From NCBI GenBank assembly GCA_965650895.1, contig CBFGQN010000001.1:1-31305 (forward strand): 31,305 bases of DNA. Direction: 5' to 3'. How positions within the stretch are numbered: position 1 is the stretch's first letter; each line of letters starts with the position of its first letter. The notes under the pieces are model-generated. The model did not search any database. It saw only the letters and a list, made by a program, of their open reading frames with translations, and had not been told where the DNA came from. Of the stretch, positions 3,381 through 19,478 are shown in pieces. This stretch comes from an uncultured Ignavibacteria bacterium (GTDB lineage Bacteria; Bacteroidota; Ignavibacteria; OLB7). Both the position numbers and the translations under genes were made by a program.

Positions 3381-4697
3381 CTACAGGTTGACCGTCATCA
3401 TACCGTAACCCCACCATCCGAGGTCGCCTCCGACAACGCTTCGCATCAGCTCATCGGCCAGGAAGACCGAAGCGCCGAAGGTAAAGGTCGCGTGACTCCT
3501 GTTGTTTTGCGTGTGATACTTCCAGACGAAGGTTGCGTCGATCTCCTTCCCGAGTCCGGTCCCCCCTCCCTGGTCGACGGCGGTCGTAAACAGATGACCG
3601 TCGAGGGCGGCCGAGACATCATCGGAGAACTTCAGCCGCGTCGTCACCCCCACGTCCTGCAATCCGGCAGTTCCGTTGCCGCCGGGGAAATAGTCCATGT
3701 AACCGTAGAACTTGTGGTTGGTGGCAAAAAGCGTGTTGAACGCACCGAACGTGTCGTCGGTCGGATCGTCATCGCCGGAAAGTCTGGCATAGAGTGCGCC
3801 GATTCCGAACCGGTCGACCGTGTAGAGGAGCTTGCCTGCGACCAGAAACGCCCCGTAGGAAGAGAGGGGGAGTCCGTCTCCTCCCTCAAATCCCCTCCCT
3901 CCCTGCCACGCGAATTCACCTTCGTAATCGAAGGGGGCGATCGATCCGCGAACAAACGTTCCGGCCGTGATCCGGTTCCGGGCCTGCGATCCGGAGTCCT
4001 CTCCGCGAGGAAGTGCCCGCGTGTCGTTGTCGTACAGCGCAAAGACATCCCCCTTGTGGTTTCCACCGAAGTTCAGCGAACTCCAGAGACCGTACAGATT
4101 CGTCGAGAAGAGATCGTCCAGCCGCTCAAGCGAATCGGTTTCAATGCCGAAGCCGAGGCGTGAGGCGAAGAGATCGACCGATCCCCAGTCATCTGCGGTC
4201 CGGAGTCTGATCGCATCGAACGACCGGCCGACATTGCTCCAGCCGACCGCACCGATCAGCCGCTCATTCCCGTAGATCATCTCCTGCCGACCGATCTGCA
4301 GGTCCAGACCGGAGCCGAGAAGATCGGGAAGGCGGACAAACGCCTGATGCACATCGAGCCGGTCGGCACTTCCGTCCATAGTGCTCTGCTCCTCACCGAA
4401 GGTGCGTGAATCCTGAATCACCATGACCCCTTCCACATCATCAGTCGGCGAGAAGAAGATCCCGGCACGGGTACGCAAAAGATGAAAATCTCCGAACCGA
4501 TCCCCCCCATCCTCCGCGACACGTCGTCCGTCGGCCTCGAAACGATAGCGGATCTCGCCGCTGAACTTCACCACCCGCTCCCGTACCGCAATGTCTGCCG
4601 TCTCCTGTCCCATCAACCCGGTCTGACCGCTGAGGAAGAACGTCGCCAGCAGGAAGGGGACCGGCAGGATCTGCCGAAACCGTCTGTTCGCATTCAT
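3381..4697 (-). CDS. Alginate export family outer-membrane beta-barrel protein (porin)
   Basis: Signal peptide, GEIRYRFE N-terminal motif, QIGRQEMIYGNERLIGAVGWSNVGRSFDA, FNTLFATNHKFYGYMDYF, amphipathic beta strands, and a terminal strand ending YGMMTVNL. Confidence 0.85.
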   Translation of the reverse strand: MNANRRFRQILPVPFLLATFFLSGQTGLMGQETADIAVRERVVKFSGEIRYRFEADGRRVAEDGGDRFGDFHLLRTRAGIFFSPTDDVEGVMVIQDSRTFGEEQSTMDGSADRLDVHQAFVRLPDLLGSGLDLQIGRQEMIYGNERLIGAVGWSNVGRSFDAIRLRTADDWGSVDLFASRLGFGIETDSLERLDDLFSTNLYGLWSSLNFGGNHKGDVFALYDNDTRALPRGEDSGSQARNRITAGTFVRGSIAPFDYEGEFAWQGGRGFEGGDGLPLSSYGAFLVAGKLLYTVDRFGIGALYARLSGDDDPTDDTFGAFNTLFATNHKFYGYMDYFPGGNGTAGLQDVGVTTRLKFSDDVSAALDGHLFTTAVDQGGGTGLGKEIDATFVWKYHTQNNRSHATFTFGASVFLADELMRSVVGGDLGWWGYGMMTVNL

Positions 4698-4758
4698 AGG
4701 ATCTTCTGTCGGTTTTAGAAGGTTTCTTAAAAGTCTCGAATTGCAGAAATCTCAGTTG

Positions 4759-4843
4759 CTTGGTGATTCTTGGTGCCCTTTGTGTCTTGGTGGTAAGAAT
4801 CAGACGCACCACCAAGACACCAAGAGCACGAAGCATCACCAAG
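4759..4843. repeat. Intergenic palindromic element, family B
   Basis: 36-nt arms 4759-4794 and 4808-4843 are inverted repeats with 4 mismatches and a 13-nt spacer. The arms are built of about 9-nt CCAAG/CGAAG units. Confidence 0.85.
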
Positions 4844-4919
4844 TGGTAGAGCATTTCGCTGATACTTCTCTGTGACTGCTCAGACCACAGAGCACACAGG
4901 CTACTTTTAAGACTCCCTC

Positions 4920-6185
4920 TTAGTGATGCTTGTCGAAACGAACGTGTCCCAGTTCTATCGGGACGGCGATTCTGACCAGCAGGGTAAAGACGAAGGCGCC
5001 GAAGGCCCAGACGCCGACGGTAACGGCGATCTCCACCCAGCTCGGCGAGTATTCCACAATCTGTCCCCACTGTCCGGGGATAAATCCCGGAACGATCAGT
5101 CCCATCCCCTTCTCGATCCAGATGCCGAGGAAGAGAAGGGCGCAGGCCCAGTTCAGCAACCGGAGGTTCTTGCGGAAGCGATGAATCGTCAGTGCGGCGG
5201 TCGCCAGGACGTTCAGCGTGATCCCGGTCCAGATCCACGGGACAAGACTGTTGTGTCCTTCCAGACCGAAGAAGAGGTAGAGCGCACTGGCGCTGTGTTC
5301 GGTCGGCGCGTAGAACTCCTTGAAGATTTCCGAACCGAGCATGATCAGGTTGATCTGCGCGGCAACGGTAACGATCAACGCGATCTTGTTCAGGGTTTCG
5401 GTCTTGATGTCGTAGTCGGTGTTGCGACGGATAAAGCCGAGGATCAGAATGATGAGGGCGGGACCGGCGGCAAACGCCGAGGCAAGGAACCGGGGACCGA
5501 GGAGAGAGGAGTTCCAGAAAGGACGGGAGGGAAGACCGGCGTAGAGGAATGCCGTGACCATGTGGATGCCGACCGCCCAGAAGACCGAGAGGAAGACACC
5601 GGGGAGATAGATCTTCGGGTTCGGATGTTCCCCCCTGTAATGCTTCCAGAGGATGTAGGCCGGGATGGTGAGGTTGATGAAGAGATAGCCGTTGAGGACG
5701 ATCACATCCCAGGCCAGCATCGACTGAGGCCAGTTGAACAGACCGATTCCCGGAATCAGATGCCACATCCGGGCCGGTCCACCGAGATCGACCACGACGA
5801 AACTGAGACACATCATCAACGCGGCAACGGCAAGTCCCTCGCCGATCAGCACGGCCCCCTTGAAATCCACATCTTTCAGGACGTAGGCCGGCAACACAAG
5901 CATGACCGCCGCCGCTGCAACGCCGACAAGGAATGTGAAGTTTGAAATGTAGAGTCCCCAACTGACATGATCGTTCATCCCGGTCGCCCCCAGCCCTTCG
6001 CGCAACTGCACCGAGTAGGCAAAGGCACCCAGAAGCATCAGAAAGGTCAGCGATCCCATCCAGAGATGGTAGCGTGCCCCCCCGGAGGTAACGGAGTTGA
6101 AGGCGTCGCGGATGAAAGAGCGGAGGACCGATATCGATGATACCGATTCGTTTCGTTCCGTTCCGGCTATTGTCTTGCTTCTCAT
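4920..6185 (-). CDS. nrfD: NrfD/PsrC (DsrP/HmcC-like) integral membrane quinol-interacting subunit
   Basis: 421 aa, about 10 hydrophobic helices. Motifs: SWGLYISNFTFLVGVAAAAV, VDLGGPAR, SMLAWD, HMVTAFLY...RPFW, EKGMGLIVPGF, Y.PSWVE. Confidence 0.9.
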   Translation of the reverse strand: MRSKTIAGTERNESVSSISVLRSFIRDAFNSVTSGGARYHLWMGSLTFLMLLGAFAYSVQLREGLGATGMNDHVSWGLYISNFTFLVGVAAAAVMLVLPAYVLKDVDFKGAVLIGEGLAVAALMMCLSFVVVDLGGPARMWHLIPGIGLFNWPQSMLAWDVIVLNGYLFINLTIPAYILWKHYRGEHPNPKIYLPGVFLSVFWAVGIHMVTAFLYAGLPSRPFWNSSLLGPRFLASAFAAGPALIILILGFIRRNTDYDIKTETLNKIALIVTVAAQINLIMLGSEIFKEFYAPTEHSASALYLFFGLEGHNSLVPWIWTGITLNVLATAALTIHRFRKNLRLLNWACALLFLGIWIEKGMGLIVPGFIPGQWGQIVEYSPSWVEIAVTVGVWAFGAFVFTLLVRIAVPIELGHVRFDKHH

Positions 6186-6266
6186 GGTCTCTTCCGTTGC
6201 TGCATTTCGAACGTTGGATGTCGGCGGGTCGCATCGAAGGGCGTACCCGGACGGAGGCTCCGGTCG

Positions 6267-7310
6267 CTAATCCATGAAGTACCAGAATTTCGGTTCCGTC
6301 CCCAGATCTTCCTTCAGCCGGAAGACTTTCTTGTTCTTCAGCACCCAGCGGATCGTGCTGTCCGGATCGAGCAGATTTCCGAAGATGCGGGCCCCCGTAG
6401 GACAGGCCTCCACACAGGCCGGGTTTCTCCCCTCACGCGTTCGCTGGATGCAGAACGTACACTTCTCCACCACTCCTTTCTTCCGCGGCCGGTTCCCCAG
6501 ATAGTGCTGGTTCCGGTTCAGCTCCTCCTGCGGCACCACCGGCTCGTGCCAGTTGAAACGGCGGGCGTGATACGGACAGGCCGCCTCGCAGTACCGACAG
6601 CCGATGCACCAGTCGTAGTCGACCACCACGATCCCGTCCTTCTCCTTCCACGTCGCCTTCACCGGACAGACGTCGACGCAGGGAGGGTTCTCGCACTGGA
6701 AGCACTGCGTGCCGACATAGAAGTGTCCGGCCGCCGGAACTTCGTGATAGAAATCGGTCTCCGCTCCGTGGAAGTTCAGACTGCCGTTCTCCAGTTCATG
6801 GATCTGGATATACTGCATCCCCGACTTCCTGTCCTGATTGTTCTCGGCGATGCAGGCGGTGACGCAATCCATGTAGCCCTTGCATCGGGAGATGTTGAAG
6901 GCATAGCCGTAGAGGACCCGGTCACGCGGACCGGTGGCGGCGATATTCACCGATCCGGGATTGTTCTTCTCGTACAGTCGTTCCAGTCGCGTTACCGTCT
7001 CCTCTTTCTCCTCATCGTTCATCAGACGGAAGTTCTTCTTGAAGTAATCCTCCCACTCCAGCTCCGCCTTCTCCGAATCGCCGAACGGACTGCAGGCGGC
7101 GTTGAGAAGGCCGAGACCGGCCATCAGGCTTCCGGCGATCGAGCTCATGGCGCTGCGGCGATCAAGCTTCCGCTCGAAAAAAAGTTCGTAGCCGTTCTTT
7201 CCGACCTCGGATTCATCGCTGCAACCACACCCGCCGCCGTTGCAACCGCACGAGGTGTTGTTCTCGCGGTGAAGAATCGGCAGGCTCCTGTCTTCCTGAT
7301 TTCGGTTCAT
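6267..7310 (-). CDS. NrfC/PsrB (DsrO/HmcB-like) periplasmic 4Fe-4S ferredoxin subunit, probable Tat lipoprotein
   Basis: Four cluster motifs: CKGYMDCVTAC (atypical), CFQCENPPCVDVCP, CIGCRYCEAACPY and KCTFC...ACVEACP. Twin-Arg DRRSAM followed by a hydrophobic stretch ending NAAC. C-terminal GTEPKFWY. Confidence 0.9.
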   Translation of the reverse strand: MNRNQEDRSLPILHRENNTSCGCNGGGCGCSDESEVGKNGYELFFERKLDRRSAMSSIAGSLMAGLGLLNAACSPFGDSEKAELEWEDYFKKNFRLMNDEEKEETVTRLERLYEKNNPGSVNIAATGPRDRVLYGYAFNISRCKGYMDCVTACIAENNQDRKSGMQYIQIHELENGSLNFHGAETDFYHEVPAAGHFYVGTQCFQCENPPCVDVCPVKATWKEKDGIVVVDYDWCIGCRYCEAACPYHARRFNWHEPVVPQEELNRNQHYLGNRPRKKGVVEKCTFCIQRTREGRNPACVEACPTGARIFGNLLDPDSTIRWVLKNKKVFRLKEDLGTEPKFWYFMD

Positions 7311-7406
7311 ATCACTCTTTCGCTCCGTGATCTTCGATTGACAGCCAACTCCCTTCTCATCAGCGGCACGTCGGACGTTTCCGTGGCGATGGAAGGACTC
7401 GTTTCT

Positions 7407-8081
7407 CTACTCTTTCTCCCGCACCGCCCGGCTTGCCCGTGCGGGGAACCGTATCGGAAACCCGGGATCGTGCGGGTTGTGGCAGGAGGTGCATGGAGCC
7501 GCCACCCGCGGAGGAGCCCAGCCTCCGAGTCGCTTGCCGTGCGCACCGCCGACCCAGTCGGCCGCCTGCGTTGCGTGACACTGGGCGCAGAGGCGATAGC
7601 TTTCGTCGAAAGCGATCCGCTCGCCACTTATAAGCCGGAGAGAATCGGTCTGCTCCGGATCGTGACAGGTCTGACAGTTCATGATCTCGGCCGGGGCGTG
7701 ATGGAGTTCCATCTCCCAGTGAGCACGAGCCAGTCCGGGATCGGGAGACTGCATTCGGCTCAACGGCACCGTGTGGCACTCGCCGCAGTTGAACCGCTCG
7801 ATGCTGTCGGTCCGGCGCGCCACAAAGAACGTGTCGACATCGCCGAGTTCCATTCCCGTCACCCGGTCATACCGCACTCCCTCGATCCAGCGATCGGATG
7901 TCAGACCGGCATTGTTGTTCGGCTCGACCGCTTCTTCCAGTTGTTCCAGTACCGAATGATGTCCCTTCGGTCCCTCATGTTCTCCCCCGCCGCAGCCGAT
8001 CAGCAGGAAGATCGCCGGCAGAATCGCAAGGAACGATCCCCGACGGTTTCCTCCACGCTTCTTTTCTCTTCGATGGTTCAT
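7407..8081 (-). CDS. Tetraheme c-type cytochrome, lipoprotein
   Basis: Four CxxCH motifs (CGECH, CQTCH, CAQCH, CTSCH). Lipobox LLIGC after a hydrophobic stretch. Start overlaps the upstream stop by 4 nt. Confidence 0.88.
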   Translation of the reverse strand: MNHRREKKRGGNRRGSFLAILPAIFLLIGCGGGEHEGPKGHHSVLEQLEEAVEPNNNAGLTSDRWIEGVRYDRVTGMELGDVDTFFVARRTDSIERFNCGECHTVPLSRMQSPDPGLARAHWEMELHHAPAEIMNCQTCHDPEQTDSLRLISGERIAFDESYRLCAQCHATQAADWVGGAHGKRLGGWAPPRVAAPCTSCHNPHDPGFPIRFPARASRAVREKE

Positions 8082-8782
8082 GGCAGCTTGTCTCCTCCCG
8101 GTCGTTCCCAGATAGCGTCATCGGAAGAAAGTGCGTGACACTGGCGGCAGTTGACCCGCTCCGGATGAGTCGTCCTGATCTCCTCGACCGCTCCGGGACC
8201 GGCATGACAGCTCAGGCAGTTTTCCCGCATCCTGAGCCGGTGCGGAATCGGCGGCGGACCGGTCGGCAACGCCTGTCCGTCGAGAGAAGGATAATCGACC
8301 GGCTGGAACAGATTGGCCCGGAACGTCCCCTCGACCCGTGCGGGATTGTGGCATTGACGGCAGTTCTTCAGGTCGGGATGGGGGGTGACCGGCGTGAAGG
8401 CGTTGAACTTCGGGACGTAGCCCCCCTTGCCGTGGCACGTCAGACAGTGATCGCCGCCGAGACTCCGGTCATCTTCCACCTCGTGCGGAATCATCGGAGG
8501 TCCCCCGGGATAGGCGCGACGCGCATGGAACATCGCCAGCGTCCGGCTCCCCTCCTCACTCGATTTCAGATAGCTCAACGCCTCGGCTCCGGACTGAAAG
8601 CCGGAGACTTCACCGGCAAGCCGACTCGGCTCGGCCGGCCGCAGCACTTCTCCTTCCTCTCTGCCTGCCGACACTTCCTCGATCAGACTCTCGCCGACGA
8701 CAACGATACCGGATGCCATCAGCACGATGCAGAGTCCGATGACGACATACCGTCGTTCAGGTCCTCTTTTCATCCGCTTCAT
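8078..8782 (-). CDS. napB: NapB-family cytochrome c, tetraheme (internally duplicated), N-terminal membrane anchor
   Basis: Likely start at 8782 (ATGA overlap with the napA stop). The NapB signature PPxIPH occurs twice (YPGGPPMIPH, GPPPIPH), each followed by two CxxCH motifs (CLTCH/CRQCH and CLSCH/CRQCH). Confidence 0.8.
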   Translation of the reverse strand: MKRMKRGPERRYVVIGLCIVLMASGIVVVGESLIEEVSAGREEGEVLRPAEPSRLAGEVSGFQSGAEALSYLKSSEEGSRTLAMFHARRAYPGGPPMIPHEVEDDRSLGGDHCLTCHGKGGYVPKFNAFTPVTPHPDLKNCRQCHNPARVEGTFRANLFQPVDYPSLDGQALPTGPPPIPHRLRMRENCLSCHAGPGAVEEIRTTHPERVNCRQCHALSSDDAIWERPGGDKLP

Positions 8783-11133
8783 GCGACGATCTTCTCCAGC
8801 CGTACGGCGCATTTCTTGTAATCGGGTTGCTTCGAGATCGGACAGAAGGCGTCGAGCGTCAACTCGTTGATCAGGTAGGACTCGTCGAAGAAGGGGACGA
8901 AGACCTGTCCCGGCGTGGGCAATCCCCGACCGTTGATCGACGCCGGCAACACAAGTTCGCCCCGCCTCGTCACCAGCTTCACCCGTTCACCGTCGTTGAT
9001 GCCGAAGCGGACGGCATCCTCCGGATGGATCTCCACATAGGCGTTCGGGACCGCACGGTGGAGGATCGGCACCCGGCGCGTCATCGATCCGGTGTGCCAG
9101 TGTTCAAGGACGCGTCCGGTGTTCAGCCAGAAAGGATAGTCGTCATCGGGGACTTCCGGAGCCGGTTCGTAGGGACGCAGCCAGAGCCAGGCCCGGTGAT
9201 CCGGCTTGCCGTAGAAGTCGTACGGACTGTTGCCGACCGTCTGTTTTGCCGCCGGATCGTAGTCTGCGTTGTATCGCCACTTCGTCTCCTTTCCATCCAC
9301 AAAAGGCCAGATCACTCCCGGACGTTCTTTCAGCAATTCATAGGGGGCCATGCCATGTTTCGCTCCCTCCTGGAACCGGCTGTACTCTTTCCAGATCTCT
9401 TCGATGTGCGTCTCGTAGCTCCACGGGAAAAGGTCTCCGTAGCCGAGTCTTCGGGCCACCTCGATCAACTGCCATCCGTCGCTCATCGCCTCTCCCGGAG
9501 GCGTGAGCATTTGCTGAAAATGCTGGGTTCGACGCTCCGAATTTCCGAACATTCCCTCCCGTTCGATCCACATGGCCGAAGGGAGAATCACGTCGGCGAT
9601 GTCGGTTGTCGGCGTCGGGTAGACATCGGAGACGACCACGAAACGTCCCTCCTTCAACGCCCCCTCACGGTAGCGTTTCAGCTTCGGCATCGTCACCATC
9701 GGATTGGTCACCTGGATCCACATGAAGCGGATATCCCCCCGGTCGAGGGCGCGAAACATCTCGACGGTGTGAAAGGTCGGTTTCGACGGAATGTTCTCCA
9801 CCGGCACGCCCCATATCTCCGCGGCCATCTTCCGGTCTTCCTCGCTGGTCACCACGCCGTGCGGCAGCCTGTGCGTCAGCGTTCCCACCTCGCGGACCGT
9901 GCCGCAGGCCGAGGGCTGACCGGTCAGGGAGAAGGGACTGTTGCCGGGCGTGGCGATCTTGCCGACGAGCAGATGGATGTTGTAGACAAGATTGTTGATC
10001 CACGTCCCCCGGGTATGCTGGTTGAATCCCATGCACCAGAGACTCATCACGTTCTTTCCGGGATCGCCGTACAACGCGGCCAGGTAGCGGATATCGGCGG
10101 CGGAGACACCCGAAAGCTTCTCTACTTTTTCGGGCGTGTAGTCCTTCAGGAAATCGACCAGATCATCGAAATCCGATTCCATCGCCTCGTCCTCGAACTT
10201 GAATCCGTCCTCCAGACCGTAGCCGATATTTGTCTTTCCCCGCTTGAAGGAGACGTGGTTGGCGACGAACTCTTCGTTGACCTGACCGTTGCGGATGATC
10301 TCGTGGCAGATCGCATTGGCGATTGCCAGATCGGTCTGCGGCGCAAAGAGGATAGACCGGTCGGCGGCCATACTCGTGCGAGTGGTTCGCGTGGCCAGAT
10401 CAATAATCCGGGCTCCCCCCTTCATCTTTCTGTCGAGCAGACGGGAGAAGAGGACCGGATGCATCTCCGCCATGTTGTTCCCCCACAGGACAAAGACGTC
10501 GGCATGGTCGATGTCCTCGTAGCACCCCATCGGCTCATCGAGTCCGAACGACGTCATGAACCCGGTGACCGCACTCGCCATGCAGAGTCTGGCGTTCGCC
10601 TCCAGGTTGTTCGTCCCGATCCCCCCCTTCATCAGCTTCGAGGCGACGTAGCCGTCCGGTATCGTCCACTGTCCCGAACCGTAGAGGGAGACCGAGTCCT
10701 TGCCGTATTCGGCAATCGTCTCCTTGATCTTCTGCGCCACCAGATCGAGAGCTTCGGCCATCGGAACCGGAGTCAATCGTCCATCCTTCCGCACATAGGC
10801 CTGCCTCAACCTGTCTGCGCCGTACAGAGCAAGAATCGTGTGGTATCCCTTGACGCAGCAGAGACCTTTGTTGACCGGACTGGCAGGATCCCCCTGGACG
10901 GCGACGGCACGTCCGTTCTCAACGGCCACAAGGAGTCCGCATCCGACACCGCAGAAGCGACACGGCGTCTTCTTCCAGACAACCCCCTCGTTCTCCCCCA
11001 ACACTCTCCCCTCTCCGTACCCCTCGTAACCCTTGTCCCCCTTCTGATTGAACGTAACGGTAGGGAACAAAGACTGAGCAACGGAAAAGGCCGACCCTGC
11101 GGCAGCCATTCTGAAGAACTCGCGACGGTTCAT
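8779..11133 (-). CDS. napA: Periplasmic nitrate reductase catalytic subunit (Mo-bis-PGD, 4Fe-4S)
   Basis: Tat signal MNRREFFRMAAAG. 4Fe-4S motif CRFCGVGC...C (GLCCVKG). Mo-ligand motif NARLCMASA. Nap-type QPSACGTVREVG. C-terminal DAFCPISKQPDYKKCAV. Confidence 0.95.
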   Translation of the reverse strand: MNRREFFRMAAAGSAFSVAQSLFPTVTFNQKGDKGYEGYGEGRVLGENEGVVWKKTPCRFCGVGCGLLVAVENGRAVAVQGDPASPVNKGLCCVKGYHTILALYGADRLRQAYVRKDGRLTPVPMAEALDLVAQKIKETIAEYGKDSVSLYGSGQWTIPDGYVASKLMKGGIGTNNLEANARLCMASAVTGFMTSFGLDEPMGCYEDIDHADVFVLWGNNMAEMHPVLFSRLLDRKMKGGARIIDLATRTTRTSMAADRSILFAPQTDLAIANAICHEIIRNGQVNEEFVANHVSFKRGKTNIGYGLEDGFKFEDEAMESDFDDLVDFLKDYTPEKVEKLSGVSAADIRYLAALYGDPGKNVMSLWCMGFNQHTRGTWINNLVYNIHLLVGKIATPGNSPFSLTGQPSACGTVREVGTLTHRLPHGVVTSEEDRKMAAEIWGVPVENIPSKPTFHTVEMFRALDRGDIRFMWIQVTNPMVTMPKLKRYREGALKEGRFVVVSDVYPTPTTDIADVILPSAMWIEREGMFGNSERRTQHFQQMLTPPGEAMSDGWQLIEVARRLGYGDLFPWSYETHIEEIWKEYSRFQEGAKHGMAPYELLKERPGVIWPFVDGKETKWRYNADYDPAAKQTVGNSPYDFYGKPDHRAWLWLRPYEPAPEVPDDDYPFWLNTGRVLEHWHTGSMTRRVPILHRAVPNAYVEIHPEDAVRFGINDGERVKLVTRRGELVLPASINGRGLPTPGQVFVPFFDESYLINELTLDAFCPISKQPDYKKCAVRLEKIVA

Positions 11134-11387
11134 CGTGTACTCTCCTCATGTTGTTGTTCGGGATCGTCGTAGCCGGCCACCAGGGCAAGGAAGGCAAGGG
11201 AGTCGATGTTCAGCAATTCGGACTGCAGGATCGTTTCCTCTTCCCTGCCGTTGGTGTCGGTGACAAGAACAAGCAGATCGCGGTTGTCTGCGGGATGGAC
11301 GGAGCACTCCTTTATCTGCCGGAGCCGGCGCATCAGCTCATCCTTTTTTCCATCGACCGGATAGGCCAGATAACTCATGATGGGCAT
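11130..11387 (-). CDS. napD: NapD-like chaperone
   Basis: 85-aa ferredoxin-like pattern (MPIMSYLAYP...LLVLVTDT...). GGAGG RBS. Overlaps the napA start by 4 nt, the usual napD position. Confidence 0.75.
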   Translation of the reverse strand: MPIMSYLAYPVDGKKDELMRRLRQIKECSVHPADNRDLLVLVTDTNGREEETILQSELLNIDSLAFLALVAGYDDPEQQHEESTR

Positions 11388-11423
11388 GGGACCTCCACAA
11401 CAATGTTCGATAGTTTCCGGTTC

Positions 11424-11446
11424 CGGAGGAGATACTTCTACCTCCG
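11424..11446. other. Hairpin between ric and napD
   Basis: cggagg-aga-tact-tct-a-cctccg stem-loop. No U tract follows on the minus (sense) strand. Confidence 0.45.
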
Positions 11447-11453
11447 CAAAGAA

Positions 11454-12215
11454 TCAATTCAGCATACAGGCTCCTCTCCCACCACCGTTCAGCTCCTCCT
11501 CCAGCCGGATCGCCGCCGGGAACAGGATGTTGTTCTCTACATGGACATGGCGGTGAAGATCCTGCTCGAACTCCTGCAGCTCCTTGAACAGCACCCGATA
11601 GGTTGTGCAGGCGTCAGGAGGAGGCATGTAGTTATTGGTCAGTTCACGTATCTCCGCCATCTCGTCGCCGGCCGCCTCGTGTTCCTTCAGCATCACCTGA
11701 ATCGGATCATGCACCGTCGCGAAGGGGGAAGCCTTGACCGGCAGCCCCTTCTCCTTTGCCTGTGCCAGATTCCATATATAGGGGAAGAGGACTCGCTCTT
11801 CCTTCATCATATGGGAGAGCATCTCCTCGGCAATCAGAATAAACTTCTCCTCGATGCTGACCATGGCCGGATGCTTTGCCCCGTGAACGCGGGCAACCTT
11901 CTCGGCATGCGTCTGGATCGTCGGCAGAACGGAGCGGACATAGGTATGATGATTCTGAAGAATATAGTCGATCAACAGTTCAGGACTCCACATACCGAAG
12001 CGTGGTTCCCCTGCCGATGGGGCGGCGAGCGTCACGTTCAGATCTTCGATCAAACGCTCGACATCCACTCCCTTTTTGTGACAGGCCTGTTCGATCGTTG
12101 CCCCGCCGCCGCAACAGAAATCCAGCTCGTACTTCTGAAATACGGCGGCTGTCCGGTAGTCGGTAACGACAACTTCCCGGATGGTTCTGTCGGCAGCAAG
12201 ATTCGTCTGGTTCAT
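11454..12215 (-). CDS. ric: Iron-sulfur cluster repair di-iron protein (YtfE/ScdA/Ric), 253 aa
   Basis: Start at 12215 with GAGGA RBS. N-terminal DFCCGG motif. Hemerythrin-like ligands HHTYVR, HMMKEERVLFP, EHEAAG, HVHVENNILFP. Confidence 0.95.
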   Translation of the reverse strand: MNQTNLAADRTIREVVVTDYRTAAVFQKYELDFCCGGGATIEQACHKKGVDVERLIEDLNVTLAAPSAGEPRFGMWSPELLIDYILQNHHTYVRSVLPTIQTHAEKVARVHGAKHPAMVSIEEKFILIAEEMLSHMMKEERVLFPYIWNLAQAKEKGLPVKASPFATVHDPIQVMLKEHEAAGDEMAEIRELTNNYMPPPDACTTYRVLFKELQEFEQDLHRHVHVENNILFPAAIRLEEELNGGGRGACMLN

Positions 12216-12238
12216 TATGGTTCCTCGTAAACGATGAA

Positions 12239-12254
12239 TGGATATACCTATCCG
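12239..12254. promoter_or_regulatory. Candidate Rrf2 operator upstream of ric
   Basis: Minus strand CGGATAGGTATATCCA = CGGATA-N4-TATCCA palindrome in the 73-bp rrf2-ric gap. Arms and spacing match the site at 12759-12782. Confidence 0.55.
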
Positions 12255-12288
12255 TCTCCGTGCATGGGAAACGAGAATTATCTGCGAT

Positions 12289-12726
12289 TTACGGTGCCAG
12301 CCGTAAGTCAAATCTGGTCACTTTATCCCTCAACTCCGCTACCGTCGTCCCGGCAAAGACCTGCGAAAGCTCCGTCCGCACAGCAGCCCACCACTGGTGC
12401 AGAGGACAGGGTCTCTGCTCACCACATCCCGGCAAGCCGAGCAGACACTCAAAGAACAGTTCCTCCCCGTCAATGGCGGTGACAATCTCCCTGAGTGTGA
12501 TCCGGTCGGCCGACCGGGCAAGAGCCACCCCTCCGTTCGGTCCGCGGTAGGAAATAAGGATGCCCTCCTGCGCCAGGGTCTGGACAATCTTCGCAAGGAA
12601 ATGATAGGAGATATTCAAATGTTCCGCAACCGCACGTACCGGCACATATTCCTCTGCCTTCTGTACTGTCGCTATGTGCAGAACGCTTCGTATCCCGTAC
12701 TCACACGTCTTCGACATGATTTTCAT
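12289..12726 (-). CDS. Rrf2 family transcriptional regulator with Fe-S-type Cys triad (NsrR/IscR-like)
   Basis: SKTCEYGIRSVLHIA, winged HTH (HFLAKIVQTL...SYRGPNGGVALAR), C-x6-C-x5-CPLH. Start may be 12726 or 12717. Confidence 0.92.
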   Translation of the reverse strand: MKIMSKTCEYGIRSVLHIATVQKAEEYVPVRAVAEHLNISYHFLAKIVQTLAQEGILISYRGPNGGVALARSADRITLREIVTAIDGEELFFECLLGLPGCGEQRPCPLHQWWAAVRTELSQVFAGTTVAELRDKVTRFDLRLAP

Positions 12727-13054: not shown

Positions 13055-13438
13055 TCACCTCACCATCCTCTCCAGCAGATGCTCCAGCGTTCTCTCCACA
13101 TCGGTTGTGAAGCCGGTGTGGACCGGCGAGGTCTGGATGATCGTGCTCCGCTGTGCGGTCAGCCAGTAGAAGCGTTCGCGCTGCGTCAGCCGTCCGATCT
13201 CTCCGGCCTGCGGGTCTCCCTGACAGATCTTCGGAATGATCGCGAGATACCGCTCGATCTTCTCCCGATCAAGCTCCGGAGCAAAAGCCTGCAGTCGTTC
13301 CCAGTCCGGCTCGATCCGGGCTTCAAGGAATTTCCGTCCGGCACAGGAGAGGATCACGCCGGCGTTGATGAACTCCTCACGCTCCACCCGGGGGACCACG
13401 CGGATCACGGCGTAATCAAAGGTGCAGATGTCGTGCAT
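13055..13438 (-). CDS. DUF3037 domain-containing protein
   Basis: FDYAVIRVVPRVEREEFINAGVIL and RFYWLTAQRSTIIQTSPVHTG. Overlaps the kinase stop by 23 nt. Confidence 0.9.
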   Translation of the reverse strand: MHDICTFDYAVIRVVPRVEREEFINAGVILSCAGRKFLEARIEPDWERLQAFAPELDREKIERYLAIIPKICQGDPQAGEIGRLTQRERFYWLTAQRSTIIQTSPVHTGFTTDVERTLEHLLERMVR

Positions 13439-14180
13439 CGATCGCCTCCTTCACAAATTCACGTCCATGTTCCAGCCGATTGGTCAGGAACTCTTCGTAG
13501 ATGCTTCGTCCCTCCTCCCCCCGCTCCAGCCACTCCTCCGGGATCAGGGCGACAATATCGCGCAACGCTTCGGGCGTCAGTCTCCCCCGCAGAAATTCAT
13601 CGGCCTCCTCAAGTTCGTCGGCAAACGGAAGAAGCATATGGTCTTTGATCTGCCGGAACGGATTGCGGCTATTCTCCGGAAACCGGTCCCAGTCGTGCTG
13701 ATAGAAGAGAGCCGCCCCGTGATCGATCAACCAGAGCTCCCGGTGCCACCAGAGCATGTTGGCGTTCCGCGGAGTCCGGTCGACGTTTGCGGTGTAGGCA
13801 TCGAACCAGACGATGCGCGAGGCGAGTTCGCCGGAAGGTTGTTCGATCAGCGGGTCGTACATGATCGAACCGGGAAGGTAATCCAGCGCCAGATTGATTC
13901 CCCCACTGGCTTTGATCAGATCCTGAATCTCCGGATCGGGCTCGGTCCGGGCCATCTCCGGATCCAGATCGACAAAGACGATCTCCGGCACCCTGAAGCC
14001 GAGAAGACGGGCAATCTCCCCGGCGACAAGCTCCGCAATCAACGCCTTCACCCCCTGTCCGGCCCCCCGGAACTTCAGGACGTAGAGACCGTCGTCGTCC
14101 CCTTCAATAATGGCCGGCAGCGATCCCCCCTCCCGCAACGGGGTCACGTATCGCATCGCATTGACGGTTCGCAGCTTCAT
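13416..14180 (-). CDS. HipA-like kinase, 254 aa
   Basis: Start MKLRTV at 14180. Motifs: TPLREGGSLP, YVLKFRGAGQG (ATP-binding Lys), NVDRTPRNANML (catalytic loop), WLIDHG (Mg-binding). Confidence 0.88.
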   Translation of the reverse strand: MKLRTVNAMRYVTPLREGGSLPAIIEGDDDGLYVLKFRGAGQGVKALIAELVAGEIARLLGFRVPEIVFVDLDPEMARTEPDPEIQDLIKASGGINLALDYLPGSIMYDPLIEQPSGELASRIVWFDAYTANVDRTPRNANMLWWHRELWLIDHGAALFYQHDWDRFPENSRNPFRQIKDHMLLPFADELEEADEFLRGRLTPEALRDIVALIPEEWLERGEEGRSIYEEFLTNRLEHGREFVKEAIDARHLHL

Positions 14181-14353
14181 GAACAAGAATAAGATGATGA
14201 CCGGAAAACCGGCAAGATAGATGTTGTCGGGCAATGCGTCTGTTTCGATGAACATCTGTCAGACGGGGTTTCGGTAACTTTCGGAAGCGTCAGTCCGTTT
14301 TGTCGACATCGATCAACCGGAACTCCGAGACCATCAACTATCATGCTTGATTT

Positions 14354-17348: not shown

Positions 17349-17573
17349 ACATAAGGGAATGCCGAACCGATTGGCCGGGTTCGCTCCGTCGACTCATTAT
17401 CCAACCATAACACACCCCCTCCTCTCTTAACCTGAAGTTAACGTACGCCCCTCCTCTGCCGATCCTAACTTGCATCGCTGTACATGCTCCCATGCATTCC
17501 CTTTTTAATGTCATGCTCCGGTCCCGGAAGACCGGAATCAATCAACGATTCAACGATCAGGAGAAATCGACAG

Positions 17574-19478
17574 ATGAGAGAATTTGTTCGGAACACCCGA
17601 ATTGCCGTCCGACGCACGGCGGCGATCTGCGGAATGCTGGCGGCGGGAGCCTTCATCAACGGAACGCTGTACGGACAGTGCGGTCCCTGGACCATCGAAC
17701 TGGACCGGCTCGATACCTATCATTCGGGTCTGTTTGACGAGGGAGGGGCGGAGATCGGAGCCTACGATTCGCGATCCGAACGGATCTTCGTCACCAACGC
17801 CGGAGACAACAGCATGGATGTGCTCGACGCGAGCGATCCGGAGAATCTGTCGCTCGACTTCACGGTCGACCTTTCCGGTTACGGCGGAGGACCGAACAGC
17901 GTGGCGGTCTATCGCGGCGTGGTTGCCGTGGCGGTGGAGGCCGATGAGAAGACCGACAACGGATCGGTCCTCTTCTTCGATACCGACGGCGAGTTTCTGA
18001 ACAGCGTCGAGGTCGGTCCCCTTCCGGATATGCTCACCTTCACGCACAACGGTCAGTACCTGCTTGTGGCAAATGAAGGAGAGCCGAACGACGACTACGA
18101 CGTTGATCCTGAAGGGTCGGTCAGCATTATCGACATGAAGGGAAAGATTTCAAAACTGAACGCCTCGGACGTAAAGACCGTATCGTTCACCTCGTTCAAT
18201 TCGGCGACGCTCGATGGGAGCATCCGCATCTTCGGTCCCGGCGCCTCCGTGGCGCAGGACCTGGAGCCGGAGTATATCGCCGTCAGTCACAACTCGAAGT
18301 ATGCCTACGTCACGTTGCAGGAGAACAATGCGATTGCCGTGATCGATATAAAGAAAGGGACCGTCATCTCTCTGTTCGGCCTCGGCTTCAAGAACCACAA
18401 CACGACCGGCAACGGTATCGACGCAAGTGATCGCGACGATGAAATCAACATCGTCAACTGGCCGGTCTACGGCATCTATATGCCCGACGCAATCGCCGCC
18501 TACCACTATCGCGGCGACGACTATCTGGTGACGGCCAACGAAGGGGATGCCCGCGACTACGATGAGTTCGCCGAGGAAGAGCGGGTCAAGGACCTGACGC
18601 TCGACGAGACCGCCTTCCCGGATGCCGACGATCTCCAGGAAGATGAGGCAATCGGTCGCCTGACCGTCACGACGGTCAACGGTGACACGGACGATGACGG
18701 AGATTACGACGAACTCTACACGCTCGGCGCACGTTCCTTCTCGATCTTCACAACAGACGGCACACTCGTCTTCGACAGCGAGGACGACTTCGAGCAGATC
18801 ACCGCCCTTCTCTACCCGGACGATTTCAACGCCACCAACGACGAGAACGGAACCTTCGACAACCGGAGCGACAACAAGGGTCCGGAACCGGAGGGGTTGA
18901 CGATCGGGACGATCAAGGGGCGGACCTACGCATTTATCGGTCTGGAACGGATCGGCGGCATCATGGTCTACGACATCACCGATCCCTACGATCCTTCCTT
19001 CGTCGAGTATGTCAACAACCGCGACTTCTCCGGGGATGCGGAGGACGGCACCGCAGGCGATCTGGGACCGGAAGGCTTGCACTTTGTCGACAAGGCATCG
19101 AGTCCGACCGACTCTCCCCTGCTGATCGTCACCAACGAGATCAGCGGCACAACCACGGTCTACGAAATCAACAGCCTGCAGAGCGGAAGCGGCAAGAGTG
19201 TGTCGGGTGAATCAATGGAAATATCCGGCACCGTCAGTCCGAATCCGGCTACAACCGACGCAACGATCTCCTTCACAATGGAGCAGGCCGCCAATGTCCG
19301 TCTGGACATCGTGGACATCAACGGCGCGACAGTGACCGGTCTGACCGATGAAGTGCGTAATGCCGGCCACCACTCCGCAACGGTCGACGTCTCCGGACTC
19401 CCGCAAGGGACGTATTTCTGCCGTCTGCTGATCGACGGACGTATCACATCAGTACGACCGATTCAGGTCGTCCGATAG
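17574..19478 (+). CDS. Choice-of-anchor I (alkaline phosphatase/5'-nucleotidase-associated beta-propeller) protein with T9SS type A sorting domain
   Basis: Start at 17574 with an AGGAG RBS. Motifs: GPLPDMLTFT, ANEGEP, DLEPEYIAV, TANEGDARDY, RSDNKGPEPEG, GLERIGG, GDLGPEG. CTD SPNPA...LPQGTYFCRL. Confidence 0.9.
   Translation: MREFVRNTRIAVRRTAAICGMLAAGAFINGTLYGQCGPWTIELDRLDTYHSGLFDEGGAEIGAYDSRSERIFVTNAGDNSMDVLDASDPENLSLDFTVDLSGYGGGPNSVAVYRGVVAVAVEADEKTDNGSVLFFDTDGEFLNSVEVGPLPDMLTFTHNGQYLLVANEGEPNDDYDVDPEGSVSIIDMKGKISKLNASDVKTVSFTSFNSATLDGSIRIFGPGASVAQDLEPEYIAVSHNSKYAYVTLQENNAIAVIDIKKGTVISLFGLGFKNHNTTGNGIDASDRDDEINIVNWPVYGIYMPDAIAAYHYRGDDYLVTANEGDARDYDEFAEEERVKDLTLDETAFPDADDLQEDEAIGRLTVTTVNGDTDDDGDYDELYTLGARSFSIFTTDGTLVFDSEDDFEQITALLYPDDFNATNDENGTFDNRSDNKGPEPEGLTIGTIKGRTYAFIGLERIGGIMVYDITDPYDPSFVEYVNNRDFSGDAEDGTAGDLGPEGLHFVDKASSPTDSPLLIVTNEISGTTTVYEINSLQSGSGKSVSGESMEISGTVSPNPATTDATISFTMEQAANVRLDIVDINGATVTGLTDEVRNAGHHSATVDVSGLPQGTYFCRLLIDGRITSVRPIQVVR

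Follow-up and report, generated by a model that had tools for sequence, protein, structure and literature searches.

A periplasmic nitrate reductase operon of a soil Bacteroidota genome in which a DsrOP-like triad is the probable quinol dehydrogenase in place of NapC or NapGH

How can a periplasmic nitrate reductase (Nap) draw electrons from quinol when none of its usual quinol dehydrogenases is encoded beside it? This question is raised by a gene cluster on the minus strand (12726 to 3381) of a 31,305-nucleotide stretch of DNA, contig CBFGQN010000001.1 (positions 1 to 31,305) of assembly GCA_965650895.1 from an uncultured Ignavibacteria bacterium; this whole stretch is called the window below. 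The source genome is a soil Bacteroidota assembly of 744 contigs that is 93.3% complete. A recent review of Nap systems recognizes four operon types only, napEDABC, napDAGHB, napCMADGH and napAGHBFLD (Biochem Soc Trans 2026, PMC13223375), all of which use NapC and/or NapGH. None of napC, napG, napH and napF lies in the window, as the original prediction had stated. We conclude that the cluster quite probably holds a six-gene Nap operon in which a triad of genes, for a tetrahaem cytochrome (cyt4), an iron-sulfur (Fe-S) protein and an NrfD-family membrane protein, encodes a three-subunit quinol dehydrogenase that would feed NapA.

The cluster comprises nine intact genes in the order rrf2-ric-napD-napA-napB4-cyt4-FeS-nrfD-porin, with families assigned by Pfam and NCBIfam models. 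The co-directional run of intact genes from napD to the porin agrees with what had been claimed for this locus. The features are as follows, in the order of transcription.

12289..12726, minus strand: rrf2, a regulator of the Rrf2 family (NsrR/IscR-like; Pfam Rrf2 109 bits, TIGR00738 104.8 bits).
11454..12215, minus strand: ric/ytfE, a di-iron iron-sulfur cluster repair protein of the RIC/YtfE type (TIGR03652 246.6, cut-off 204.7; ScdA_N and Hemerythrin domains).
11130..11387, minus strand: a napD-like chaperone of 85 aa, assigned mainly by size and position (Pfam NapD 17.1 bits, below the cut-off of 28).
8779..11133, minus strand: napA, the catalytic molybdoenzyme, with the twin-arginine translocation (Tat) signal NRREFFR (NF010055 954.1, cut-off 904).
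8078..8782, minus strand: napB4, a tandem NapB of 234 aa with four haems (4 CxxCH; PF03892 29.1, cut-off 25.1).
7407..8081, minus strand: cyt4, a tetrahaem cytochrome c lipoprotein of 224 aa (4 CxxCH; lipobox LLIGC).
6267..7310, minus strand: a Tat-exported, four-cluster, DsrO-like Fe-S protein of 347 aa, probably a lipoprotein (NF045797 DsrO 191.6, cut-off 200).
4920..6185, minus strand: nrfD, a DsrP-like, predicted quinol-binding membrane subunit of the NrfD family, 421 aa (Pfam NrfD 118.7; NF045798 420.1, cut-off 350).
4759..4843, no strand assigned: an inverted repeat between the nrfD-like and porin genes, with 36-nt arms that are 89% complementary and contain CTTGGTG-like units.
3381..4697, minus strand: an outer-membrane beta-barrel porin of the Alginate_exp family (Pfam PF13372 95.7 bits).

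The 4-nt ATGA overlaps reported for the napD/napA, napA/napB and napB/cytochrome junctions are present, the second of them requiring that napB start at 8782 and not at 8812, the start of the longest open reading frame. Gaps of 96 nt (cyt4/FeS), 81 nt (FeS/nrfD) and 222 nt (nrfD/porin) separate the genes that follow.

We scanned species-representative genomes with the NrfD protein and retrieved 80 loci. The six genes napD-napA-napB4-cyt4-FeS-nrfD, all co-directional, recur in this order in 25 loci from 8 phyla, so that the Fe-S and NrfD genes are conserved next to napA as the original prediction required. In Bacteroidota these loci belong to Kapaibacterium, Agaribacillus, Ekhidna, Saprospiraceae and Flavobacteriales; the others are found in Rhodothermota, Calditrichota, Chloroflexota (Ardenticatena, Caldilineaceae), Gemmatimonadota, Nitrospirota, Thermodesulfobacteriota and one metagenome-assembled genome (MAG) labelled Myxococcota. 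Co-directional recurrence in 25 independent loci places the arrangement far beyond chance. A maximum-likelihood tree unites the NrfD proteins of the Nap-linked clusters in a single clade (SH-aLRT 99), made up of the 25 Nap-linked loci, two truncated loci and one locus with masked sequence. Among 401 sampled Bacteroidota genomes, three encode NapA, and the tandem NapB and full cluster accompany it in 3/3. A genome of the same genus lacks the cluster and phyla are mixed in the NrfD tree, which points to horizontal spread. The distance matrices of five of the proteins correlate (r 0.68-0.88), a correlation that shared genome ancestry alone can yield.

The search for canonical donors was extended from the window to genomes. 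The 93%-complete source genome has no match above cut-off to PF03264 (NapC/NirT) or to NrfH, and its best scores for NapH (60.9 bits against 213, from a 507-aa CcoG-like frame) and NapG (21 bits against 179) fall far short. The same holds for two closed genomes that carry the cluster (G006 and G312), which have neither NapC/NirT nor NapGH; the closed one among the three NapA-bearing Bacteroidota genomes is without NapC/NirT and NapH. Among 17 Nap-linked genomes, 6 are devoid of any NapC/NirT protein, including the closed Ekhidna chromosome, and NapH exceeds its cut-off in 1/17 and NapG in 0/17. Each NapC/NirT match that was inspected is an NrfH adjoining NrfA or an octahaem reductase. What the data show directly is the gene content, the motifs, the conserved synteny, the phylogeny and the lack of NapC and NapGH. 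In a closed deltaproteobacterial MAG, genes for NrfH-type and octahaem cytochromes lie immediately upstream of napD-napA-napB4-triad (L025 2600-4800; G012 C1 888843-889328), and together these genes make a compact nitrate-to-ammonium island.

Judged by its full set of catalytic motifs, the molybdoenzyme is a genuine NapA. It keeps the Tat signal, the [4Fe-4S] motif CRFCGVGC...C, the molybdenum ligand Cys184 (ARLCMASA) and GQPSACGT, and Cys184 aligns with the NARHCMASA motif of the solved NapA chain 3ML1_A. These motifs are essentially invariant across 18 loci, with Cys184 in 18/18 and ARLCMSSA in a single locus. The score against TIGR01706 (923.4 bits) is slightly below the cut-off (930.55), and a recent study (J Biol Chem 2025, PMC12769810) describes some substrate promiscuity in solved NapA enzymes; both would suit a NapA-like enzyme for another oxyanion, with the cluster serving a different respiration. 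We consider such a reading very improbable, given that the NF010055 cut-off is exceeded, that the protein scores 802 bits against the solved chains 3ML1_A and 2NYA_A, that the sole change in the motifs is the Ala-to-Ser replacement beside Cys184, that the partner is of NapB type, and that the upstream RIC and Rrf2 genes fit nitrosative stress from nitrite. Homologues of rrf2, which heads the cluster, and of ric occur again near related clusters (L018, L069, L073, L080, L090), and NapD-like homologues occupy the same position in at least 20 loci. No NarG, NrfA or NirK was found in the source genome, and Nap is therefore the only dissimilatory nitrate reductase seen there.

The electron partner of NapA is unusual. 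NapB is ordinarily a soluble dihaem cytochrome of about 130-160 aa, from which NapB4 departs with its 234 aa, four haems, duplicated sequence and N-terminal helix. It nonetheless carries the NapB signature PPxIPH ... CxxCH ... CxxCH, and a profile of 19 NapB4 homologues matches, in the PDB, only the NapB chains 1OGY_B, 3ML1_B and 1JNI_A. The four CxxCH motifs and four distal histidines (H100, H135, H181, H206) are invariant in these 19 homologues. Aligned with hhalign, the profile of the N-terminal half matches that of the C-terminal half with 99.2% probability (E 1e-19); on this comparison NapB4 is a tandem duplication of the NapB unit. A conserved hydrophobic helix at residues 12-30 is predicted to tether it to the membrane. 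The family is large, with 633 clusters at 50% identity (E <=1e-10).

The triad begins with cyt4, which lies upstream of the FeS-nrfD pair in every one of the 80 related loci whose contig reaches that far. The cytochrome has four CxxCH motifs and four invariant histidines, and its matches among solved structures are weak and of a generic multihaem kind. Two candidate identities for it were rejected: NapC/NirT, since the PF03264 score is 20 bits, below 24.1, and a DsrJ relative, since no similarity is detected (E >=0.7).

In the Fe-S protein a conserved cysteine comes after the twin-arginine motif and the hydrophobic region, and the nearest solved relatives of this protein are ArrB, PsrB and ActB. 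Its nearest family is DsrO, with a score under the cut-off. The membrane protein has 10 hydrophobic segments, corresponding to 10 predicted helices, and has 80 near-invariant positions in common with bona fide DsrP. The original prediction described the two as a pair of the NrfCD/PsrBC type. Membership of the NrfD family stands; the assigned type gives way to a DsrOP-like one, with 420 bits for DsrP and 192 bits for DsrO. The Fe-S protein scores 123.7 against the NrfC model TIGR03149 (cut-off 377.6), the pair remains far under the QrcC (160.9 against 400) and QrcD (46.5 against 570) cut-offs, and the NrfD-family protein reaches 46.7 bits with ActC. DsrOP of the sulfite-reduction complex has its closest paralogue in this membrane pair. 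Membrane attachment of the non-catalytic periplasmic subunits, also proposed beforehand, is predicted for NapB4 from its helix, for cyt4 from its lipobox and for the Fe-S protein from the cysteine after its Tat motif, and these predicted tethers are conserved among homologues.

Motif I of the Fe-S protein reads CxG(Y/F)xxCxxxC in 24/25 Nap-linked homologues, and so lacks its second cysteine. For this reason the cluster furthest from the membrane is probably [3Fe-4S] or otherwise altered. The NarH/DmsB cluster scheme assigns motif I to the cluster most distant from the membrane, so the altered cluster would face the cytochrome. A cysteine-deficient motif is also found in ActB of alternative complex III (ACIII), where it is motif III.

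A separate Cys-rich stretch, SCGCNGGGCGCSDE, occupies residues 20-33 of the Fe-S protein (window 7212-7253, minus strand), N-terminal to the twin-arginine motif and within the portion of the Tat signal peptide that remains in the cytoplasm. A CxC...CxC arrangement before the RR motif is also present in homologues from Rhodothermota, Cytophagales, Saprospiraceae, Caldilineaceae and Gemmatimonadota, and is absent from those of Desulfobacterota and Flavobacteriales.

The relationship with DsrP is that of a paralogue. Elsewhere in the NrfD tree, the true DsrP of five sulfate reducers groups in a long-branched clade of its own (support 100), and the window's NrfD protein lies outside it. The same sulfate-reducer genomes hold both proteins, the true DsrP at 480-500 bits and the Nap-linked paralogue at 386-403 bits. 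The nearest named families, DsrP and DsrO, belong to the DsrMKJOP complex. Like the DsrJOP part of that complex, the triad has a 10-helix membrane subunit and the gene order cytochrome, Fe-S protein, membrane subunit. Unlike in DsrMKJOP, no dsrMK is found nearby, the neighbours are nap genes, and the electrons would remain in the periplasm; moreover, cyt4 has four haems and a sequence unrelated to that of the trihaem DsrJ.

DsrMKJOP provides the model for how the triad might work. Its cryo-EM structure (bioRxiv 10.64898/2026.08.25.746951) shows menadiol bound to DsrP close to the periplasmic side and within 8 Å of a DsrO cluster. The menadiol is oxidised on turnover, with electrons passing from DsrO to the cytochrome; a proton path leads to the periplasm, and no structural basis for pumping is evident (same preprint). 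In the Nap operon, the triad would consist of a cofactor-free, DsrP-like 10-helix membrane protein, a four-cluster ferredoxin that resembles DsrO and is exported via Tat, and a tetrahaem lipoprotein of the bis-His kind. Menaquinol would bind the NrfD/DsrP-like subunit at the periplasmic face and be oxidised there, its protons leaving to the periplasm. Electrons would then run along the Fe-S chain to cyt4, from cyt4 to the membrane-anchored four-haem NapB4 and on to NapA, which would reduce nitrate to nitrite. We infer quinol oxidation at NrfD from homology with DsrP; for the order of carriers we rely on the gene order, the constant presence of the triad and the kinship of NapB4 with NapB. This is the wiring put forward in the original prediction, quinol to NrfD, Fe-S protein, tetrahaem cytochrome c, NapB4 and NapA, and the comparative evidence of 25 loci, one NrfD clade and closed genomes without NapC or NapGH speaks for it.

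With protons released to the periplasm and NapA using two protons there, the quinol-to-nitrate step is probably electroneutral, as with NapC. The suggestion that this architecture might conserve energy finds no support, given the periplasmic quinol site, the proton release and the lack of an evident pump path reported for DsrMKJOP. We regard as unlikely a reading in which menaquinol oxidation at the DsrP-like subunit is coupled to vectorial proton transfer, or in which the whole chain forms one fixed, membrane-bound NapA-NapB4-cyt4-FeS-NrfD supercomplex. If either were true, this would be the first energy-conserving periplasmic nitrate reductase, which would explain why it takes the place of NapC/NapGH in many anaerobes as well as in single-membrane Chloroflexota. 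That every carrier is tethered suits the single membrane of Chloroflexota, among which Ardenticatena maritima is a cultured nitrate reducer with NapA as the only nitrate reductase reported in its genome.

Several points weigh against giving the triad the role of Nap quinol dehydrogenase. The source genome is incomplete, and 11 of the 17 Nap-linked genomes, all other than the source, carry an NrfH that could in principle cross-feed Nap. On contig C169 (L002) of the source genome, a second NrfD-family gene adjoins a ferredoxin gene with the ActB-type motifs CTGCNACVIAC and CIGTRYCSNNC, so the organism also has an ACIII, which could feed periplasmic cytochromes. The triad has relatives with other partners and is thus no intrinsically Nap-specific module. 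Finally, reads containing the locus come from soil and rhizosphere DNA runs only, with no RNA run among them.

The incomplete assembly and the presence of an ACIII would agree with Nap being fed by another donor, be it ACIII, NrfH or a NapC/NapGH left unassembled among the 744 contigs, while the triad runs backwards as a Qrc-like quinone reductase or serves another substrate. A study of Qrc, a relative, shows that it reduces quinone (Nat Commun 2018, PMC6303296). On the other side stand the closed genomes that have the cluster and no NapC/NirT or NapGH, the lack, in all of the Nap-linked clusters, of a periplasmic enzyme that would donate electrons (hydrogenase or formate dehydrogenase), the distance from the QrcC and QrcD models, and the fact that the nearest characterised relative, DsrP, oxidises quinol (bioRxiv 10.64898/2026.08.25.746951). 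We give this explanation very little chance of being correct.

The partners of the triad outside the Nap clade raise another alternative. Its relatives adjoin extracellular electron conduits of the MtrC/OmcA and MtrAB kinds in Gammaproteobacteria, HAO-like octahaems in Hydrogenedentota and one deltaproteobacterial MAG, and ImcH-like and CbcL-like proteins in Verrucomicrobiota (partners of these kinds occur at L044, L048, L052, L086 and L087). In Planctomycetota and Verrucomicrobiota they lie beside divergently oriented napAB. Because the partners vary in this way, the triad is, by its gene neighbourhoods, a portable quinone-to-cytochrome coupler, and the window belongs to a lineage of it dedicated to Nap. 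One could go further and see in it a small substitute for ACIII or bc1, a quinol:cytochrome c oxidoreductase of general use that reduces the periplasmic cytochrome pool, with Nap as one of several acceptors, co-located for regulation and not hard-wired. The MtrCAB-like, HAO-like octahaem, ImcH-like and CbcL-like neighbours, to which Acidobacteriota contribute as well, suit that proposal, and a general quinone-to-periplasm role has been suggested for such modules (PMC13047784; bioRxiv 10.64898/2026.08.25.746951). Docking of NapB4 is also unsupported by the complex prediction for the Fe-S protein (residues 75-347) and cyt4 (31-224) with NapB4 (35-234), whose result (0.01, mark 0.32) counts neither way. 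Within the Nap-linked clade, however, the six genes invariably follow one another without interruption and in one direction, and the codons at their junctions often overlap; the clade is monophyletic; triad and NapA always occur together in the sampled Bacteroidota; and the tethering of all carriers favours a fixed local chain. A general oxidoreductase thus appears quite unlikely here, and a triad dedicated to Nap remains our preferred reading.

How does this operon compare with known systems? It resembles canonical Nap in its NapD, NapA and NapB-type cytochrome, its Tat export and its catalytic motifs. It differs in having no NapC, NapG, NapH, NapF or NapM, in a NapB that is duplicated to four haems and membrane-anchored, and in the predicted oxidation of quinol by a cofactor-free NrfD-family protein with a ferredoxin and a second tetrahaem cytochrome. 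The general plan is reminiscent of E. coli NrfABCD, in which a periplasmic reductase is likewise fed via a cytochrome (the pentahaem NrfB), a four-cluster ferredoxin (NrfC) and an NrfD-type membrane quinol dehydrogenase. Here, by contrast, the membrane subunit resembles DsrP and has 10 helices, and a molybdoenzyme stands where Nrf has a pentahaem nitrite reductase; the match is at superfamily level only, through Pfam NrfD. ACIII (ActABCDEF), a quinol:cytochrome c oxidoreductase, also combines a 10-helix NrfD-type subunit, a Tat-exported Fe-S subunit and multihaem cytochromes, and ActC and ActB provide the nearest solved structures; the similarity is weak, and the window cluster has no molybdopterin-like ActB1 domain, ActD, ActE or ActF.

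The closest precedent for the triad itself is the DsrOhPh-tetrahaem (DsrOhPhCyt) locus, which occurs in cable bacteria, in some Desulfobulbales and in Gamma- and Betaproteobacteria (BMC Genomics 2026, PMC13047784; bioRxiv 10.64898/2026.08.25.746951). These two sources call its function unknown and report it also in non-sulfur organisms, with no terminal acceptor named and no link to Nap; the supplement text of PMC13047784 mentions neither NapA nor nitrate. In both cases a His/His tetrahaem cytochrome c is combined with homologues of DsrO and DsrP apart from dsrMK. The window triad has the adjacent DsrO and DsrP homologues and the tetrahaem with four invariant histidines, a likeness drawn via gene order, motifs and shared relatives; Gamma- and Betaproteobacterial and Desulfobulbales members fall in one tree family with the window's NrfD protein. 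What sets the window triad apart from the DsrOhPh-tetrahaem locus is its incorporation into a nap operon that has a tandem NapB; the cluster also lacks the small TMH1 protein found in cable bacteria. The idea that the cable-bacteria 'dsrOP' lies within a nap operon was ruled out, since Ca. Electrothrix scaldis has napFDAGHB with NapGH.

A literature search for an operon linking a DsrOP-like triad to Nap returned no description. A review of the NrfD family does not mention Nap, and papers on Deferrivibrio, Caldithrix and Thermosulfurimonas concern other Nap variants. The architecture, absent from the four operon types reviewed in PMC13223375, is thus distinct as had been proposed, and apparently constitutes a widespread Nap variant that is undescribed so far.

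The surroundings of the operon add some further observations. Homologous porins are found beside the nap cluster in L006, L011, L012, L013, L014, L017, L019 and L117, in varying positions, and the porin is a possible anion channel associated with the cluster. The inverted repeat at 4759-4843 could be a REP-like element or form a hairpin at the end of a transcript, and probably belongs to a family of palindromic elements dispersed in the window. Within the cluster, matches to sigma-70 promoters and terminators are no more frequent than in shuffled sequence, and the Bacteroidota -7 motif TAnnTTTG does not occur. Just upstream of rrf2, window 13055-14255 holds an overlapping gene pair for a HipA_2-like kinase and a DUF3037 protein. 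At 17484-19478, a choice-of-anchor I protein with a T9SS C-terminal sorting domain (Por_Secre_tail) fits an origin of the contig in the Bacteroidota/FCB group.

The operon would be a fifth Nap type beside the four reviewed ones, and it appears to be the only form of Nap in the sampled Bacteroidota. This has consequences for annotation. The NCBIfam DsrP model NF045798 (cut-off 350) admits the Nap-linked NrfD proteins at 386-420 bits, and the Rhodothermales orthologue in a nap operon (L006 10001-11236) is named 'DsrMKJOP subunit DsrP' in GenBank. Such naming amounts to a systematic misannotation, through which the potential for sulfur cycling would be overestimated. Pathway-inference pipelines that demand napC or napGH, or take the membrane subunit for a DsrP, will misjudge both the nitrate-reducing and the sulfur-cycling potential of soils and sediments. 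Finally, Nap becomes a candidate terminal acceptor for the DsrOhPh-tetrahaem module, which suggests a function for this orphan module.

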